Of a DNA stretch of 62,285 nt, positions 2 through 61,956 are shown piece by piece (the stretch's first letter is position 1; each line of letters opens with the position of its first letter). A program made the translations under genes and the position numbers. The notes beneath the pieces were generated by a model, which ran no database searches, was not told where the DNA came from, and worked only from the letters and a program-made list of their open reading frames with translations. The stretch covers positions 1 through 62,285 of the IMG/VR virus record IMGVR_UViG_3300022700_000085; one strand, 5' to 3'. Origin of the DNA: a virus. Its lineage: Duplodnaviria; Caudoviricetes.

Positions 2-370
2 CTTCACATAGAGTATTTCTTTAGAACTGAAAATTCAGCAGTTTTTAGTTTATATGAAAAATCTGAAGTAGCAAGTGGAGATGCACTAACAGCAAGAAAC
101 TCCAATAGAAATTATGTTGATTCATCTGAAACAACTAATATGGTGAAGAACGGCACAATCACAACCACTAATGCAACAACGCTTGTGACTCATAATGTCG
201 GTTATGAAGAGTCATTTTTTAGTTCAGATAGTGGTCAAACAAGTTCTAGGCACGAATGGGTACTTAAAGAAAATACAGTATATACGTTTGAATTAGACAA
301 CACAGCAGGTGCAAGCAACGAAATGTTACTTCGACTTGATTGGTATGAAACTGAACCGGAGACTGAATAA
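2..370 (+). CDS. 5'-truncated hypothetical (probable virion) protein, paralog of 370..924
   Basis: Frame is open from base 2 to TAA at 368-370; shares TEN.A..S.YE, VKN.T, EW.LK..T.Y and DW.E motifs with the next ORF. Confidence 0.6.
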   Translation, partial: LHIEYFFRTENSAVFSLYEKSEVASGDALTARNSNRNYVDSSETTNMVKNGTITTTNATTLVTHNVGYEESFFSSDSGQTSSRHEWVLKENTVYTFELDNTAGASNEMLLRLDWYETEPETE

Positions 371-2941: not shown

Positions 2942-4621
2942 GTGAGCCAAGGAATATTAATGGGACTCCTAACAGATTTTGGTGACACTCTACACAATGG
3001 TTTAGTGTCAAAAACATTAAACAACTGTAGTAGATGGGTAACACATCGAAGAGTGATGGGAGCCCCTTTTCCAGGTCCGTATAACTTCAAGTATCACCCT
3101 TGGTGCAGAGAAATACATGATTCAAAAGCAGAGTATAACACAATAATGAAAGCAGCTCAATTAGGGCTGACAGAAGTTGCTGTTAATCTTGCTTTTTTTA
3201 CAGTTGATGTAAGAAAACGTGATGTGCTTTATGTCTTACCAACAGCTTTAAATGCTAGTGATTTTTCCAAGTCTCGTTTTAATACTGCTTTACTTAATAG
3301 TCCTTATCTTAGCAATTTATTCACTGACACAAATACTGTCGGACTAAAGCAAGCAGGAGGTATTAATTTATATATACGAGGTTCACGAGGCGATAGCAAT
3401 TTAAAATCCATTCCAGTATCAGTATTGATTCTTGATGAAATGGATGAAATGGACCAGAAACAAATCTGGTTGGCTTTTGAACGTTTGTCTGGGCACCTTG
3501 AAAAATCAGTTTTATCTTTAAGCACGCCAACAATCCCGAAATTTGGAGTGCATAAACTTTTTCTTCAAGGAACACAAGAGCATTTCTATTTTGATTGCCC
3601 TCGATGCGGAAGATCAACTGAATTTATTTTTCCAGATTGTTTAGAAATTTGCGGTGATTCAATAACAGACCCAGATGTAAAAAAGTCTTTTCTTAAATGT
3701 AAAGAATGTAAAAAAGAAATAAAACAAGAAGAAAAACCTGAAATTTTGAAACCTGCTTTTTGGAAGCCGACAACAACGGTGTCTGATAGTCATCGTAGTT
3801 TTTACATCAACCAAATGTACTCTTACACTGTTACTGCCTCTGATTTAGCTATAGCTTATTTTAGAGGTCTTGGTGATGAAGCTGCAATGGTTGAATTTTA
3901 TAATTCAAAACAAGGTACTCCCTTTATTCCTGATGGAGGCCAAGTTACAGAAGAAGAACTTGACCAAGCTTGTAAAACATATTTTAAAAATGAACAATTC
4001 CCAACAGTTGGAACAGAACGATGTATTGTAATGGGTATTGATCAAGGAAAAATGAACAACGTTTGTATTGTTGAATATATTTTTAAAGGCGGTTCAGGAG
4101 ATATAAATGCGTCGGCTTATGCAAAACTTTTATGGGAAGGGGAATTTTCAGGTAGTGATTTTTCTTCATTAGATCCTTTAATGTATGATTGGCAAGTCAA
4201 AGCCTGTGTTATTGATGCTGACCCTCAAATCAATGATGCAAGGCGTTTTGCTAGACGTTTTCCTGGTTTTGTGTACCTTTGTCGTTATCGACAAGGGTTG
4301 ACTGGAAAAGAATATCAAGTCAGTGAAGAAGATAGTGGAGCACCTATAATAACTGTAGACCGCACTAATTGGTTAGATGCTTCTCTTGGTAGGTTCCATT
4401 CAAATAGGGTTTCTCTTCCAGCCGACACATCAAACAAATTTAAAGAGCAAATTAAAAATTTGGCTCGCACATATGAAAAAGATGCACAAGGAAACCCCAA
4501 AGCTATCTATATGAATACAGGCCCAGACCATTATGCGCACGCTTTTAATTACGCAGAGATAGCTTACCCACTCGCCGCCGGTATAGGTCAAACTGAAGAT
4601 ATTGATGAGCAGGTTTTATAA
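2942..4621 (+). CDS. terL: Terminase large subunit (lambda GpA-like)
   Basis: MKAAQLGLTE Walker A-like, LILDEMD Walker B, STPT motif, CPRC/CKEC zinc motif, MGIDQG and PDHYAHA nuclease motifs. Confidence 0.9.
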   Translation: MSQGILMGLLTDFGDTLHNGLVSKTLNNCSRWVTHRRVMGAPFPGPYNFKYHPWCREIHDSKAEYNTIMKAAQLGLTEVAVNLAFFTVDVRKRDVLYVLPTALNASDFSKSRFNTALLNSPYLSNLFTDTNTVGLKQAGGINLYIRGSRGDSNLKSIPVSVLILDEMDEMDQKQIWLAFERLSGHLEKSVLSLSTPTIPKFGVHKLFLQGTQEHFYFDCPRCGRSTEFIFPDCLEICGDSITDPDVKKSFLKCKECKKEIKQEEKPEILKPAFWKPTTTVSDSHRSFYINQMYSYTVTASDLAIAYFRGLGDEAAMVEFYNSKQGTPFIPDGGQVTEEELDQACKTYFKNEQFPTVGTERCIVMGIDQGKMNNVCIVEYIFKGGSGDINASAYAKLLWEGEFSGSDFSSLDPLMYDWQVKACVIDADPQINDARRFARRFPGFVYLCRYRQGLTGKEYQVSEEDSGAPIITVDRTNWLDASLGRFHSNRVSLPADTSNKFKEQIKNLARTYEKDAQGNPKAIYMNTGPDHYAHAFNYAEIAYPLAAGIGQTEDIDEQVL

Positions 4622-7006: not shown

Positions 7007-7834
7007 ATGATGATGAAGAAGACAAGTATTTTATGTTACGAAGGCGAAGGCTTTAACGAAGGCGAATTGAATAATGCCACAGGCGGCCAAGGCGGCCAAG
7101 CTGGTCAAGAAGGTCAAGCTGGTCAAACTGGTCAAGAAGGTCAAGAAGGTCAAGAAGGTAAGACTTTTACACAGGAAGAATTAAACAAGATTCTAGCTGA
7201 TGATAAACGAAAACACCAAGAAAAGTATAAGCAGCTTGAGGATTCATATAAGGAATTACTCCAAAATCAGAATCTTACTCAAGATGAGCGAGATAAAATG
7301 AAATCGCGTCTTGACGATTTGCAAAAGAGTTACCGCACAAAAGAACAGCAAATCGAATATGAGAAGAAGAAGGCCCAAGAAGAATGGGAAGAAAAGCTTA
7401 AAGAAGAAAATGAACGCGCCGACAAATGGGAAAACATGTTCAAGAAAGAAACTATGAACCGTTCGCTTCAAGATGCTGCGATGGGGACTGATGCTTTCAA
7501 TCCTAACCAGATTGTCAGTTTACTTCGTCCTTATACTCAGTTGAAAGATGACGAAGAAAGCGGCAGTTTGAAAGCTATGGTTGATTTCCCAGATATTGAT
7601 GAGAAAACAGGTGAACCTGTAAATACTTTGCGAACACCGCAAGACGCTGTAAAACGTATGAGGGAACTACCAAAAATGTATGGAAACTTATTCAAGAGTA
7701 ATGTTGTTAGTGGCGTTGGTGCTGGAAATGCTTCTGGCACTGGTGATCTAGATTCAATGGATTATTCAAAACTTACTCCTGAACAATACCGCAAGAATCG
7801 CGATCAAATTAAGAAGCGATTGAGCGGGAATTAA
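7007..7834 (+). CDS. Capsid scaffolding protein
   Basis: ATG run at 7007; GQE/GQA low-complexity linker, KTFTQEELNKI motif, long coiled coil, directly upstream of the capsid gene. Confidence 0.8.
   Translation: MMMKKTSILCYEGEGFNEGELNNATGGQGGQAGQEGQAGQTGQEGQEGQEGKTFTQEELNKILADDKRKHQEKYKQLEDSYKELLQNQNLTQDERDKMKSRLDDLQKSYRTKEQQIEYEKKKAQEEWEEKLKEENERADKWENMFKKETMNRSLQDAAMGTDAFNPNQIVSLLRPYTQLKDDEESGSLKAMVDFPDIDEKTGEPVNTLRTPQDAVKRMRELPKMYGNLFKSNVVSGVGAGNASGTGDLDSMDYSKLTPEQYRKNRDQIKKRLSGN
7082..7160 (+). repeat. 9-bp tandem repeat (GGT/C CAA GNN) encoding Gly-Gln-X
   Basis: ggccaaggc/ggtcaagaa/ggtcaagct units visible in the sequence. Confidence 0.8.
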
Positions 7835-7990: not shown

Positions 7991-8028
7991 ATGAACATCT
8001 TATGTTATGCAAATAGTAATGACGCGCT
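7991..8028 (+). CDS. Major capsid protein exon 1 (MNILCYANSNDA + CT)
   Basis: GAGGAG RBS; ends in U that forms the P1 U.G pair; joins exon 2 in frame. Confidence 0.85.
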
Positions 8029-8987
8029 AAATTGAATTGGCCCTCCACATAGAAATATGTGGTTGAACTTGGCTATATGCTGGAAACACACGTTAAGAAA
8101 AGAGTACGATGCTTAAGACTTGTTCCAAATGTGGTAAAGAAAAATCTTTAACATCTTTTCATTTTAGAAAAGATTCAAAGAAATACCGCAATGAATGTAA
8201 AAAATGTTTAAAACTGTTGCAAACTGCACACAGATATAATATAACATTCAAGCAAGCAGCAAGATATTATGAGCAATCTCATTGTATGTGTTGTGGGGTT
8301 GAGTTCGCAATGAAACCTAAGCAAAAACATCTACACCATGTAGATAATAAAATGCGAGGTGTTGTATGCAAGGATTGTAATATCTTGTTAAGACAGGAAA
8401 CAACAAATGATTTACATCGTTTAAAATCCTGTTTATCTTTTATGGGAAAGCAACGTGAAAATCTCTTTTATAGTGTCAATCAGCAGGGAAGCCGACGCGA
8501 TGGAAAGCTATGTGGCCCCTCAACGACTAAACGCCGAGTACCTTACTATTCTCTTGAAGGTTTACATGTTTGTAAAACTTGTCAAAAGGCACTCCCAGTT
8601 GATAAATTTTATAAAGTAAAAAATACACAAGGAATTCTAAAACCTATAACATCTTGCAAATCGTGTTATATTATTTATTGTAAATCAAAACAATATAACT
8701 TAACACCTGAGCAAGTAAATTTTCTTCGATCAAAGACAAACTGTGATTGTTGTGGTTCAGAATTTCAAAAATTTGAACCTTATATTCATCATGTTGATGA
8801 TTGTGTATTAGGTTCTGTTTGTCGATTGTGTAATTTATTTTTAGAACAAGAAACCGATCAAGTAAGACACAGGCTTATTTCCTGTGTTAAATGGATAGAA
8901 GGTAGTGATGTAGTCTGAACTGTATGGAGACATACAGAGGTGAACAGAAATGATTCACCCCTCACATAAGTGAGAGTAACAAAATTG
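8029..8987 (+). mobile_element. Group I self-splicing intron 1 in the capsid gene (959 nt)
   Basis: P1 GCUAA/UUGGC; P2 CCACATA-GAAA-TATGTGG; P3 ACTTGGC(8067)/GCCGAGT(8533); P4 TGCTGG(8078)/TCAGCA(8480); P7 ACGACTA/TAGTCT(8911); P9 CTGTATG-GAGA-CATACAG; terminal G8987; P10 GAATT/AATTC. Confidence 0.92.
8109..8918 (+). CDS. Intron-encoded putative homing endonuclease with two tandem Zn-finger/Endonuclease VII-like (His-Me) domains
   Basis: Two repeats of CxxC..CxxC..Y...CxCC..x(L/I)HH..G.VCxxCN. Confidence 0.75.
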   Translation: MLKTCSKCGKEKSLTSFHFRKDSKKYRNECKKCLKLLQTAHRYNITFKQAARYYEQSHCMCCGVEFAMKPKQKHLHHVDNKMRGVVCKDCNILLRQETTNDLHRLKSCLSFMGKQRENLFYSVNQQGSRRDGKLCGPSTTKRRVPYYSLEGLHVCKTCQKALPVDKFYKVKNTQGILKPITSCKSCYIIYCKSKQYNLTPEQVNFLRSKTNCDCCGSEFQKFEPYIHHVDDCVLGSVCRLCNLFLEQETDQVRHRLISCVKWIEGSDVV

Positions 8988-9042
8988 AATTCCCGAGATC
9001 TGGGCACAAGAAAGTCTGGCTCTGCTCGAAGAAAATATGGTT
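8988..9042 (+). CDS. Major capsid protein exon 2 (55 nt; A + IPEIWAQESLALLEENMV)
   Basis: Follows intron 1 omega-G; encodes a typical coat N-terminal helix; ends in GGUU pairing with GACC (P1 of intron 2). Confidence 0.88.
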
Positions 9043-9983
9043 CAAAAATGACCGGACCCTGTCACTAGTAATAGTGACATGAAAACGCAACAAATTGCTG
9101 GAACAGCCCGCTAGGCAAGAGGTACGAGGATGAAGTGTCGCAGATGTAAAAATGACAAAGATTTGTCAATGTTCTATAAGCACAAAAGAACTAAGACTGG
9201 TCATGAATATATCTGCAAGCCATGTAGAAATTTACTTCATAATGCTAGGATATATGGAATATCTGAATGGTTTATTGAATATCTATATTCACATGAACAA
9301 TGTATGTGTTGTGATGAAATGTTTACAAGTAATAAAGATAGACATATTCATCACAATGATCAAGGCGTCCAAGGTCTTATTTGTATTCATTGTAATTATA
9401 TTCTTGGTCAAGAGACCGAAGAAGATTTACAAAGAATAGAAAAAGCTTTGATATACATGAAATCATCCCGTGACAATCTTCTTGATAGGGTCAATCAGCA
9501 GGTAGAGCCTCAGAGAATTGGAAAGGTATTTAATTTTACTGAGGAATCTTCAGAGAATAGAGGTTGCGAATCCCAGACATGCTCTCAATGCAAAAGATAT
9601 TTAACAATGAACTCTTTTCGCACACAACATAAAGTGTATAGAAAAGTTTGTTGGGATTGCAAGAGAAGTAATGAAAGGCTATTACATTCAAAACAAGCAA
9701 AAGAAGCAAGGAATAAAGCTTCAAATTGTGCTTGTTGCGATTGTGAACTGATTAAGAAGTATTTACATCATATAGGTACCACCGTGTTTGGTGTTGTATG
9801 CAATAGATGTAGTCAACTTCTTGGCGATGAATCAGAACAACGCAAGATGCAGTTGTTAGCCTGCAAGCTGTGGATAGAAGATAACCACAGTTGGGATTAT
9901 GGTTTATTCCGACCTACATGGAAACATGTAGAGTGTGGCAGAAATGACCACACCCGTGAAACGGTGGCACGGTAACAAATGTG
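9043..9983 (+). mobile_element. Group I self-splicing intron 2 in the capsid gene (941 nt)
   Basis: P1 GGUU/GACC with U.G; P2 TGTCACTA-GTAA-TAGTGACA; P3 CGCAAC(9086)/GTTGCG(9563); P4 TGCTGG(9096)/TCAGCA(9495); P7 GAGAATA(9553)/TATTCC(9905); P8 AATCCCA/TGGGATT; P9 CTACATG-GAAA-CATGTAG; terminal G9983. Confidence 0.92.
9130..9975 (+). CDS. Intron-encoded putative homing endonuclease with two tandem EndoVII-like domains, paralog of 8109..8918
   Basis: Same repeated Cys/His pattern (HIHH..CIHCN; YLHH..CNRCS); GAGG RBS. Confidence 0.75.
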   Translation: MKCRRCKNDKDLSMFYKHKRTKTGHEYICKPCRNLLHNARIYGISEWFIEYLYSHEQCMCCDEMFTSNKDRHIHHNDQGVQGLICIHCNYILGQETEEDLQRIEKALIYMKSSRDNLLDRVNQQVEPQRIGKVFNFTEESSENRGCESQTCSQCKRYLTMNSFRTQHKVYRKVCWDCKRSNERLLHSKQAKEARNKASNCACCDCELIKKYLHHIGTTVFGVVCNRCSQLLGDESEQRKMQLLACKLWIEDNHSWDYGLFRPTWKHVECGRNDHTRETVAR

Positions 9984-11306
9984 ATGGCCAACTTGGTCCA
10001 CCGCGACTTTTCTCCCGCAGTCGCTAGTTATGGTGATGTAGTTAATACTCGCCGACCTAGTGAGTTCTCTATTCGACGTAAAGCACAATCGGATAGTGTT
10101 GATAATCAGGATGCGCAAAGCACAAACGTGCAGGTTCCGTTGAATCAGCATGTTTATGTTTCATTCACAGTCAAGGACGAAGAAGCCAGTATGTCTTTCA
10201 AAGAATTGGTTGAATATTACATGCAGCCCGCTTCAATGGAAATGGGCCGTGCTGTTGATCGTGTTCTACTCGGTCAGGTGCATGAATTCCTAGATGAGCG
10301 AGCTGGTAAGCTTGCTACTATGTCTTCATCCAATGCTAAAGAATATGTGCTGGATGGTCGTGAAGTTATGAATACGAACAAGGCTTACCCCACTGGGCGT
10401 AATCTTGTTATCAGTCCACAGGCTGAAACTGAGATGCTCAAGACTGAGCTGTTTATTGCTGCTGAAAAGCGTGGCGATATGGGCACCGCTCTTGAGGAAG
10501 CACGTCTCGGTCGTATTCTCGGTTATGATGTTTATATGGATCAGAACGTGCCTTATGTAGCACTTTCTGGTGCTGATATTAATACCTTGAATCATGCTGG
10601 CGGTGCTAGCGCTGGTGACACTGGTAATAAGGCTTGCACAAGTACTGATGAAGTCACCAATGGTGAATTCGTCTGGTTCACAGGTGAAGGTCAGCCACAT
10701 GTAATCAGTGCTCATACTGGGTCAGGTTCAACCACCGGTGTTACACTAGTTGATGCGTATGATTACGATGTTTCAGCTAATGCCGTTGGCTACGCTTTCA
10801 ATGCCTGTGCAGTTGACTTAAGTGGTCACACCAGTGCAAATAGCAGCATCACTGCTTACGGTGCTGGCTATGATAAGAAAATCCGTTTGGATAATTGTAC
10901 AGCTAATAAGAAACCTGTTCAGGGTCAATTGTTAGCTTTTGGTACTGGTAATAGTCGAAATACCTACACGATTATTCAGGTTGAGTCCGTAAACACAACT
11001 TGTTGTTATGTGTGGTTAGATCGTCCTCTTGACGCAGCAATCAGTAATGATGATGACGCATTCCCAGGACCGCATGGTTCAATGTGTATGGGTTTCCACC
11101 GCGATGCGTTGGCTCTCGTCAACCGTCCGCTGGCTCTGCCGAATCAGTCATTTGGTGTGCAGTCTGGTGTTGGTTCTTATAATAACCTGTCAATGCGTGT
11201 TGCTATGCAATACGATATTAGTTCACAGGGTACTGTCGTAACCCTAGACATGCTGATGGGTGTTAAGGTGCTTGACAGCAATCTCGGTGTGTTACTCTTG
11301 GCGTAA
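9984..11306 (+). CDS. Major capsid protein exon 3 (P22 coat-like, HK97 fold); spliced product 471 aa
   Basis: MANLVHRDF...GDVVN.RRP, RNLVISP, LGRILGYDVYMDQN, FHRDALALVNRPL and D.LMGVKVLD motifs; central insertion domain; follows scaffold. Confidence 0.9.
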   Translation: MANLVHRDFSPAVASYGDVVNTRRPSEFSIRRKAQSDSVDNQDAQSTNVQVPLNQHVYVSFTVKDEEASMSFKELVEYYMQPASMEMGRAVDRVLLGQVHEFLDERAGKLATMSSSNAKEYVLDGREVMNTNKAYPTGRNLVISPQAETEMLKTELFIAAEKRGDMGTALEEARLGRILGYDVYMDQNVPYVALSGADINTLNHAGGASAGDTGNKACTSTDEVTNGEFVWFTGEGQPHVISAHTGSGSTTGVTLVDAYDYDVSANAVGYAFNACAVDLSGHTSANSSITAYGAGYDKKIRLDNCTANKKPVQGQLLAFGTGNSRNTYTIIQVESVNTTCCYVWLDRPLDAAISNDDDAFPGPHGSMCMGFHRDALALVNRPLALPNQSFGVQSGVGSYNNLSMRVAMQYDISSQGTVVTLDMLMGVKVLDSNLGVLLLA

Positions 11307-61008: not shown

Positions 61009-61279
61009 TAAATATATTAAAATTCTGATCGCCTGGATTTGGTTGGTTACTGCTATTGATATTTGGTGTTGCCAGTGGCTCACTGTTGAAACCGAATTAA
61101 ATCCTGTTGCCAGGATTATTTATTCAAACTTTGGAATTTGGTCGATGGTGTCAATGAAGGTTGTTGGCACTTATATTGCTACAGAGTGGTTGAGGCACCT
61201 ACCACTTTATTTTTCTATTGTAGTTTCATTAGTAATGTTAACATTGTTGCTGGTGCTAGTAGGAGTGATCCCTGTATGA
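60998..61279 (+). CDS. Multi-pass membrane protein (ELNP motif, DUF5658-like)
   Basis: Hydrophobic helices; D.....ELNP..R. Confidence 0.5.
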   Translation: MQTDKYIKILIAWIWLVTAIDIWCCQWLTVETELNPVARIIYSNFGIWSMVSMKVVGTYIATEWLRHLPLYFSIVVSLVMLTLLLVLVGVIPV

Positions 61280-61956
61280 GTAGAAGGAAGAATGATCGGA
61301 CAAAGAAACCTGCCACTTCTGGTTATAAACCAACAAAACTTGTGGCCCGATCAACTGAACAAAAGAGATATATAAAAGCAATTAAAGAAAACAATATTGT
61401 GTTTGTTCGCGGCCCTGCTGGAAGTGGTAAGACCCACATTGCCGCTGGTGTGGCTTCCTACATGTTAAAAACTAATGCTGTCGAACGTATATGTATTTGT
61501 CGCCCTGTTGTGGGAGTCGGAAAAGACATAGGTTACTTACCAGGAAACATGGAAGAAAAAGTAGGTCCATATCTTACACCTTTGTTTGATGAGCTTTCTT
61601 GCTATATGGAAAGAAGCAAAATTAAGCAACTCATTGCAGAAGGAGGGTTAGAAATTGTTCCTTTAAATATGATGAGAGGGCGAACATTTAATAATAGTTT
61701 TGTTATTTTAGATGAAGCTCAAAACGCATCCTCAACAGAAATCAGGTTGTTTCTTACCCGTGTTGGTGTCAATACTAAGATGGTTCTTTGTGGAGATACA
61801 CTACAATCAGACCTTCCAAAAGACCAACAAGGAGCATTCAAATCAGCAGCTAAAGCACTTGATGGTGTCGAAGGACTTGAAGTAATTAGCTTATCTGCTG
61901 AAGATATTGTGCGTAATCCGATTATTATTGACATTGAATATTATCTGCCGAGGTGA
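61276..61956 (+). CDS. phoH: PhoH-like ATPase
   Basis: GPAGSGKT, GYLPG, MRGRTF, LDEAQN, LTRVG, GD..QSD, IVRNP. Confidence 0.93.
   Translation: MSRRKNDRTKKPATSGYKPTKLVARSTEQKRYIKAIKENNIVFVRGPAGSGKTHIAAGVASYMLKTNAVERICICRPVVGVGKDIGYLPGNMEEKVGPYLTPLFDELSCYMERSKIKQLIAEGGLEIVPLNMMRGRTFNNSFVILDEAQNASSTEIRLFLTRVGVNTKMVLCGDTLQSDLPKDQQGAFKSAAKALDGVEGLEVISLSAEDIVRNPIIIDIEYYLPR

Follow-up and report, generated by a model that had tools for sequence, protein, structure and literature searches.

The window analysed here is a 62,285-nucleotide (nt) segment of a tailed-phage genome (IMG/VR record IMGVR_UViG_3300022700_000085), in which a terminase, a probable portal gene, a scaffold-like open reading frame (ORF) and a P22-like coat gene follow one another. 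The 5′ end of the coat gene is interrupted by two group I introns, each carrying a single ORF that encodes two Hpy99I/EndoVII-like modules and joins them by translating the catalytic core of the ribozyme (Table 1). With a probability of roughly three in four, these are best explained as two mobile introns, each encoding a single-chain, pseudo-dimeric homing endonuclease tethered by its own ribozyme core.

Table 1. Coordinates of the coat-gene exons, introns, RNA helices and endonuclease ORFs in the window
Feature	Position	Strand	Details
Terminase	2942-4621		PF05876, PF20454
Coat (major capsid) exon 1	7991..8028	+	ends in U within codon 13
Coat exon 2	8988..9042	+	55 nt; ends in U after codon 31
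Coat exon 3	9984..11306	+	
Group I intron 1	8029..8987	+	helices assigned by eye, then counted across homologues
Intron 1 P1	8026-8028 with 8039-8041		
Intron 1 P10	8034-8038 with 8988-8992		
Intron 1 P2	8045-8062		
Intron 1 P3	8067-8074/8531-8539		
Intron 1 P4	8078-8083/8480-8485		
Intron 1 P5	8088-8091/8473-8476		
Intron 1 P5a	8098-8104/8463-8469		
Intron 1 P5b	8105-8114/8448-8457		
Intron 1 P6a	8491-8516		
Intron 1 P7	8523-8529/8911-8916		
Intron 1 P8	8539-8552/8893-8904		
Intron 1 P9	8920-8937		
Intron 1 P9.1	8939-8959		
Intron 1 P9.2	8961-8974		
Intron 1 omega-G	8987		
Group I intron 2	9043..9983	+	
Intron 2 P1	9039-9042 with 9050-9053		
Intron 2 P10			2 pairs only
Intron 2 P2	9060-9079		
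Intron 2 P3	9086-9091/9563-9568		next pair is an A-A mismatch
Intron 2 P4	9096-9101/9495-9500		
Intron 2 P5a	9116-9122/9478-9484		
Intron 2 P5b	9123-9135/9463-9472		
Intron 2 P6a	9508-9544		
Intron 2 P7	9553-9559/9905-9910		compensatory A-U
Intron 2 P8	9569-9575/9892-9898		
Intron 2 P9	9914-9931		
Intron 2 P9.1	9933-9953		
Intron 2 P9.2	9954-9972		
Intron 2 omega-G	9983		
Dual-coding core, intron 1	8448..8552	+	P5b′-P5a′-P5′-P4′-P6-P6a-P7-P3′-P8 5′ strand
Dual-coding core, intron 2	9463..9575	+	
ORF1	8109..8918	+	269 amino acids
ORF1 module 1	residues 1-116		P5b loop; H76, H77, N91
ORF1 linker	residues about 117-150		core-encoded
ORF1 module 2	residues 151-266		P8 loop; H227, H228, N242
ORF2	9130..9975	+	281 amino acids; core linker between modules
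ORF2 module 1			H74, H75, N89
ORF2 module 2			H213, H214, S228

The coat gene is identified by its downstream part, which matches PF11651 (P22 coat) and phrog_283 (major head). Excision of 8029-8987 and 9043-9983 from the frame that opens with the ATG at 7991 leaves an uninterrupted coat gene of 472 codons. The last base of each 5′ exon is U, and that of each intron is G. Screening of 1698 frame-keeping U/G boundary sets left 10 that retain the screened exon-2 and exon-3 peptides; all 10 share 8028/8987, and only 9042/9983 fits both P1 and the relatives. Presence/absence polymorphism is observed directly in DNA contigs, for which four of the eight listed runs were compared: a contig of run X3 lacks intron 1 and joins 8028 to 8989 with one letter between them, and run X2 holds both alleles, as an intron-plus record and a record that leaves at 8028 into exon-2-like sequence. 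In related loci with an intron at site 31 alone, coat codons 4/5-31 are unbroken, and in those with an intron at site 13 or 19/20 alone the coat frame runs unbroken past codon 31. Balanced one-base insertions and deletions in close relatives were set aside as likely alignment effects. The exon frame meets a stop two codons into intron 1. In all 28 introns with a 5′ end such a stop precedes P4, usually only a few codons past the splice site. An early exon-frame stop has been described for bacterial group I introns (PMC3984707).

The RNA signatures of group I introns are present in both. The splice-site U is paired to G in P1 (U8028-G8039 and U9042-G9050), and the plus strand of the window contains just two copies of the Q element AATCAGCAGG, at 8478 and 9493. 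P- and Q-like motifs near 61.4-61.8 kilobases (kb) are chance occurrences inside a PhoH-like gene (61138-61956, by eye). The introns may belong to subgroup IB (possibly IB4), which they resemble in consensus motifs; that subgroup is marked by a P, Q, R consensus and an extended P5 lacking P7.1/7.2. A covariance-model search, as the earlier note had proposed, did not recover them: Rfam returned no match at the gathering threshold in the window, one 13.7-bit fragment and no further intron over its whole length. It succeeded, however, with ORF-less relatives in the same gene, four of which score 86.6, 79.1, 71.4 and 68.8 bits against RF00028 (cut-off 50) in the four fetched loci searched. The two-domain intron of locus L024 gives a full-length match of 44.7 bits, below that cut-off; a third weak match in L029 (28.8 bits) lies inside an ordinary gene and was dropped. 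A sequence profile built from the four ORF-less relatives finds three pieces of each window intron (E 4e-20 to 2e-5), while its next best match in the 62 kb window has an E of 2.8. The earlier proposal of two group I introns at these positions is confirmed by the 472-codon coat frame, the intron-less allele at 8028 and the RF00028 scores of the relatives. Such introns are probably undercounted, since standard covariance searches miss them.

Covariation across homologues, another check that had been suggested, was assessed in 25 two-domain introns with the P, Q, R and S elements as anchors for the helices, and 794 of 832 helix cells are paired. For the helices used in a sliding control, 616 of 644 cells pair in register compared to 204-296 with the 3′ strand slid by one to three bases, a count that is inflated because the helix model was drawn from the same sequences and the P5 offset picked among three. 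The G-binding G-C pair of P7 is present in 23/23. Double changes that preserve pairing occur in P3, P4, P5, P5a and P7, including U-A to G-C in P4 (3/23). In P7, C-G has become A-U in window intron 2, so that the compensatory change noted there earlier (GAAUA/UAUUC) is real; it has become U-A in two others, and U-A has become C-G in two. The last P7 pair is weak (12/23), and P3 is misaligned in about three sequences. When short pieces are folded locally, only the 3′ parts give significant values (z -2.4 and -3.4; the other four, -0.4 to 2.2), as would be expected where pairing partners are distant.

Each module consists of a CxxC..CxxC zinc finger followed by a His-Me finger, and the linker runs along P5′-P4′-P6-P7-P3′ in both introns. 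The P8-loop position of the second domain stands as originally noted, and the extended-P5 loop assigned to the first is now refined to the loop of P5b. The two ORFs are 32% identical. The Q element encodes NQQ in both, and the P7/P3′ strands encode PSTTKRR in intron 1 and SSENRGCE in intron 2, as had been read before. The previously described ends also hold: the ORF1 stop (8916-8918) overlaps the final base of P7′, and ORF2 reads through P7′ and P9-P9.2 to end 8 nt before omega-G. Such variable 3′ tails recur in the family, in which the stop lies between 9 nt upstream and 73 nt downstream of the P7′ anchor.

The two-domain, core-translating architecture extends to a family of 25 distinct two-module introns at four coat-gene sites, with about 60 proteins. 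Protein searches gave 20 ORF1 relatives among 89 candidates and 32 ORF2 relatives among 127, and with a profile 17 clusters were reached at E ≤ 1e-30. From 37 fetched loci, duplicates (L014, L016-L021, L028, L033, L037), fragments with the end of module 2 only (L013 and, in L031, the first intron) and three loci whose inspected stretch shows no intron motifs (L001, L023, L036) were left out. The final set holds 25 two-module introns (two from the window), one single-module and four ORF-less introns. All of them interrupt the same coat gene near its 5′ end, following codon 13, 19/20, 23 or 31. A search of genome contigs found no relatives, and 48 annotated phage records gave partial EndoVII/HNH matches only, none covering 80% of ORF1. 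The ORF-less introns in L029 (second intron, 3890-4215) and L035 (1305-1620) keep the start codon and the open core frame, and the former retains stubs of the C-terminal helices of both modules. Judged by these remnants, both are deletion derivatives that have lost their modules, as in a homing life cycle. As a separate observation, loci L002-L035 have at least four intron sites within 19 coat codons (13-31), of which at most two are occupied per genome.

The modules and the core evolve under different constraints. Pooled pairwise ratios of nonsynonymous to synonymous substitution (dN/dS) are 0.13 for module 1 and 0.18 for module 2 among site-13 introns (n=8; 0.11 and 0.17 for the five closest), and 0.16 and 0.23 among site-31 introns (n=12). 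In two fixed core stretches dS is suppressed to 0.08-0.30, compared to 1.06-2.59 in the modules. The dN/dS of these stretches is 0.27-1.17, and that of P7/P3′ is 0.5-1.2, values that come from 10-12 codons per stretch and pooled related pairs, with dS near saturation at site 13. Because module dN/dS is low and core dS is suppressed, the modules are read as being under purifying selection as protein and the core codons as constrained as RNA. The shared peptides (NQQ and STT/SET) to which attention had been drawn are indeed present. They are not protein motifs, as the suppressed dS and the existence of three P7 frames identify them as imprints of RNA conservation.

The reading frame, on the other hand, is kept while the P7 frame switches. 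The distance from Q to the P7 G, modulo 3, is 2 in 22 of the 25 introns, 1 in L010 and L011 and 0 in L012, and the distance from P7 to module 2 compensates each time, such that all nine length combinations sum to a multiple of 3. P7 is read as S-T-T or S-E-T, as P-Q-R-L (in 4/65 proteins) or as L-N-D-Y. Both modules lie in one stop-to-stop frame in every locus that holds both; split-module forms could have surfaced, since the loci were found by short patterns and tblastn. If the eight contrasts are taken as independent and frame-random, such conservation would arise by chance with an estimated probability of about 1.5e-4. This, including the P7 switches in L010/L011 and L012, argues against two independent loop insertions joined by accident through a stop-free core without selection on the fusion. 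The +1 core frame is also stop-free in 13/25 introns (stops per frame in about 903 core codons number 16 in the +1 frame against 0 and 105 in the others), for which reason the open core by itself was rejected as proof of selection; an accidental origin could further point to three of four ORF-less relatives that retain the same Q-to-P7 phase. The modules are nevertheless predicted to pack together and no separate start signal for module 2 was seen by eye, making an accidental fusion highly improbable.

The fold of the encoded protein has been modelled. AlphaFold predicts two ORF1 modules with the same secondary structure (mean predicted local distance difference test [pLDDT] 85.5, predicted template modelling score 0.75), joined by a linker whose residues 127-149 have a pLDDT below 50. 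When the two modules are supplied as separate chains, the pairing score is 0.67, compared to 0.01 for the best of three controls, with at least 90% of contacts agreeing between runs and a partner pLDDT of at least 87. The pairing mark is reached by 58/80 solved pairs and 2/110 mismatched pairs; the alignment supplied was made for this analysis, and a pass may reflect likeness to solved dimers. In the modelled interface, the C-terminal helices (residues 101-112 and 252-264) are paired in a near-symmetric manner. The modules are thus predicted to form a pseudo-dimer. EndoVII itself dimerises through its His-Me helix (PMC5714182).

Sequence comparisons suggest a relation to such nucleases. The best match in the PDB is Hpy99I (E 5e-4), with EndoVII at E 0.05-0.09; phrog_2633 (endonuclease VII) matches in two stretches (E 4e-18). 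PF02945 reaches 21.9 bits against a cut-off of 23.6, for ORF2 only, and Atlas features give 0.93 to PF02945 clusters. The motif HH..G..CxxCN is found in both modules of 58/60 proteins. The H41 position of EndoVII is His in all proteins counted by the pattern, and N62 is Asn in 58/58 (module 1) and 57/58 (module 2). In His-Me nucleases, His can replace Asp as a metal ligand.

Together with the inflated pairing count, the few codons behind the core ratios and the open +1 frame, several observations weigh against a pair of core-tethered EndoVII-like homing endonucleases. Fold searches rank Hpy99I first, though weakly (Foldseek E 0.049; VIA Z 5.1, root-mean-square deviation 13.3, 101 aligned). The D40 position of EndoVII is His in 58/58 two-motif proteins and the DH motif is found in 0/60; the H43 position is His in 1/58 (module 1) and 0/58 (module 2), and the R54 position is Arg in 22/58 and 6/58, while D and R are present in 83/83 outsider motifs. 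In module 2 of ORF2, Ser (9811-9813) replaces the metal-binding Asn found in 57/58 relatives. Locus L034 diverges from module 2 close to the end of its contig, and P0061-P0064 are truncated or have lost all or part of module 2. Finally, P0045, P0047, P0049, P0058 and P0061, seen as proteins only, lack the core signature, so that the linker need not be ribozyme core.

F-CphI, T4 EndoVII, Hpy99I and the intron-encoded LUZ24/Berlin members are assigned to the DHHRN/Endonuclease_7 family (Fang 2018, PMC6083498). As in that family, some of whose members are encoded by group I introns, the window ORFs have the CxxC..H..G..CxxCN zinc His-Me finger; they differ in having HH..N rather than D-H-H-R-N and two modules in one chain and two loops. 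As D40, H43 and R54 are not kept, they fall outside the DHHRN definition (PMC6083498). The earlier label of EndoVII-like therefore holds for the fold and not for these residues. The putative active site is HH..N, and the protein would act as an EndoVII/Hpy99I-type nuclease.

The same missing residues could indicate a factor that no longer cuts, namely a maturase or DNA-binding regulator descended from an EndoVII-like nuclease and kept for intron folding or splicing. Large loop inserts could hinder folding, and maturase-type intron proteins are known (PMC1995217, PMC3984707). The general-base His, its neighbouring His and the metal-binding Asn are nonetheless kept in both modules, the module clades track insertion sites, and ORF-less relatives persist in the coat gene, with L035 having no other intron in the coat stretch covered. 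A non-cutting role is accordingly quite improbable.

The differences between the modules raise instead the question of a nicking enzyme with one working active site, in which the second module would serve binding or dimer contact, at least in intron 2. Besides the Ser of ORF2 (1/58), at R54 module 1 has a basic residue or Gln and module 2 mostly a hydrophobic one, module 2 evolves slightly faster, and L010, L011 and P0059 have the zinc finger of module 2 in truncated form or not at all. Given that HH and Asn are kept in module 2 of 57/58 proteins and that the modelled interface is near-symmetric, a nickase is unlikely. The intron 2 copy in the window may be decaying or encode a nickase, because its module-2 Ser coincides with the P3 A-A mismatch and a two-pair P10. 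P0059, also known only as a protein, has coat exon 1 apparently fused in frame through P1-P5 to module 1, similar to organellar exon-fused ORFs.

A single-chain homing endonuclease would operate as follows. The two modules, each with its zinc and His-Me fingers, would fold together to present two active sites, with the translated core acting as a floppy tether whose sole protein-level demand is to stay open and in frame. Such an enzyme could break both strands of the non-palindromic coat allele that lacks the intron, whereupon repair would copy the intron into it. Palindromic character at the target sites does not exceed that elsewhere in the coat gene (6/12 vs a mean of 7.0), a count that is consistent with asymmetric targets, though not evidence for them.

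Expression of the endonuclease may be coupled to folding of the ribozyme. A purine-rich stretch before the start supplies one side of P5a, its 5′ strand, while an extension of P5b takes up the start codon in 22/23 two-module introns with a 5′ end, the exception being L011. In ORF2, both GAGG (9119-9122) and the start codon are paired in P5a/P5b; in ORF1, the start codon is paired in P5b. The partner strands of the start region covary, and in L006 a change from AUG to UUG is matched by a change in the partner. The altered start codon of L006 lies at 2995-3005, and L002 has an AUA-like one (2985-3000). Because the partner strands lie about 350 bases downstream, the start site would be open during transcription and closed in the folded ribozyme. 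The folded ribozyme would thereby silence translation, whereas an early-loading ribosome would melt the core and delay splicing, producing a kinetic split between the two. It is reasonable to regard translation and folding as mutually exclusive for one molecule at one time. I-TevI offers a precedent for hidden ribosome-binding sites and ribosome-caused splicing defects (PMC3073962). A promoter scan gave 15 sites vs 13.2 expected and hence no evidence for an internal promoter.

The origin of the two modules was examined with a tree of 68 modules (117 columns, rough bootstrap; 9/25 two-module introns omitted as near-copies or incomplete). Intron-borne modules and P0071 cluster together (100/99) to the exclusion of 11 modules from outside proteins. 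The second modules form one group (90/74), and the first modules do so in 74% of bootstrap trees. Within them, clades track the insertion site, with support of 100/99 for both modules at site 13 and of 92/91 and 99/87 at site 31. The intron of L022 (2960-3640), after codon 19/20, has a single module in the P8 loop (P0068, 174 amino acids); its ORF begins at the equivalent place in P5 and reads across the core. This module is sister to both modules, with open support (87/89); forcing it together with module 2 of L012 is not rejected (approximately unbiased test, p-AU 0.34). We infer a P8-loop module that was duplicated into P5b. A ready-made tandem EndoVII gene might instead have been acquired by, or recombined with, an intron core, leaving L022 as a deletion product. 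Such a history would accord with tandem EndoVII proteins that lack a core signature (P0067, P0077, P0103, P0128), with in-frame deletion derivatives (the second intron of L029) and with the L012 grouping. These free-standing tandems, however, carry DH motifs and fall outside the intron-borne clade. The sister position of the L022 module also speaks against acquisition, albeit at open support and with module 1 forming one group in only 74% of bootstrap trees; acquisition is rather unlikely. P0045, P0047, P0049, P0058, P0061 and P0199 have linkers without Q and R imprints, and P0045 and P0049 nest in the site-31 clade. Such relatives may have escaped the ribozyme or may belong to introns of a different kind.

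That a group I core can be dual-coding is known. The Synechococcus L1917 ORF begins in P6 and extends across P7, P3 and P8 as far as P9, and its double role has been discussed (Haugen 2007, PMC1995217); Table 1 of Edgell 2011 lists an 81-nt overlap over P6/P7/P3/P8/P9.0/P9 (PMC3073962). Both go beyond the creep into the core at one end that the earlier note took as known. The ORFs of the Synechococcus large-subunit ribosomal RNA introns L1917, L1931 and L2593 run, like those in the window, through P6, P7, P3 and P8 into P9 (PMC1995217). They have one LAGLIDADG motif and lie in an rRNA gene, whereas the window introns have two His-Me modules, in P5b and P8 loops, within a coat gene. Core creep, as in T4 td/I-TevI and exon-fused organellar ORFs (PMC3073962, PMC8393795), likewise involves overlap with core strands, a hidden ribosome-binding site, a stop just after the 5′ splice site and an overlap whose peptide shows no protein-level conservation. 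In those cases the overlap extends one terminus of the protein and is considered dispensable, while in the window ORFs it is an internal tether that joins two modules and keeps their frame, and the hiding structure is the ribozyme's own P5a/P5b. Nuclease genes overlap conserved elements of Bastillevirinae introns (PMC11878797). Capsid-gene group I introns are found in LittleE, Tuc2009 and the crAss-like Delta/Zeta groups (PMC3706429, PMC7886860), which share the host gene class and the presence of several introns per coat gene; the excerpts of these papers report no core-spanning two-module ORF.

A pair of catalytic modules placed in separate loops and linked by the core was not found in the literature searched, which covered few subscription papers; an earlier two-loop case could lie in references 11 and 27-29 of Haugen 2007 or in supplements (the structure figures of PMC11878797 and the protein table of PMC6083498). 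Of the undescribed intron-endonuclease class proposed earlier, dual coding is borne out, core read-through as such had been published, and the two-loop, core-tethered pseudo-dimer, its switchable linker frame and the HH..N site appear to be undescribed. The chances are evenly balanced that this constitutes a new architecture and enzyme subfamily, in which a P8-loop module, by then read across the core from a P5 start, was copied into the P5b loop, the core became an obligatory, frame-swappable tether, a P5a/P5b switch divides the late transcript between endonuclease and coat, and some descendants may have shed the ribozyme.

Double-motif LAGLIDADG homing endonucleases are single-chain pseudo-dimers thought to derive from duplication of a homodimer, and they recognize asymmetric targets; their fold is unrelated to the His-Me fold, and the two motifs typically occupy a single loop and are linked by protein-coding sequence alone. 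The window ORFs would provide a His-Me parallel to this homodimer-to-monomer step, with site-specific clades and several targets in one gene. They show that a selected protein can have the most constrained region of a group I ribozyme in its middle, and that the two constraints are cleanly separable, with bases held by RNA pairing and the P7 reading frame free to switch. The core-creep idea of Edgell 2011 becomes a testable series of one-module introns, two-module introns in three frames, deletion derivatives and possibly escaped proteins. The locus may also offer a natural case of competition between ribosome and ribozyme on an essential capsid mRNA.

Two further features lie upstream of the coat gene. 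A transposase-family ORF (1401-2480; phrog_506, E 1e-112) precedes the terminase, and the scaffold-like ORF contains a 9-base repeat (7080-7165) encoding Gly-Gln-X, the copy number of which differs in a related contig.

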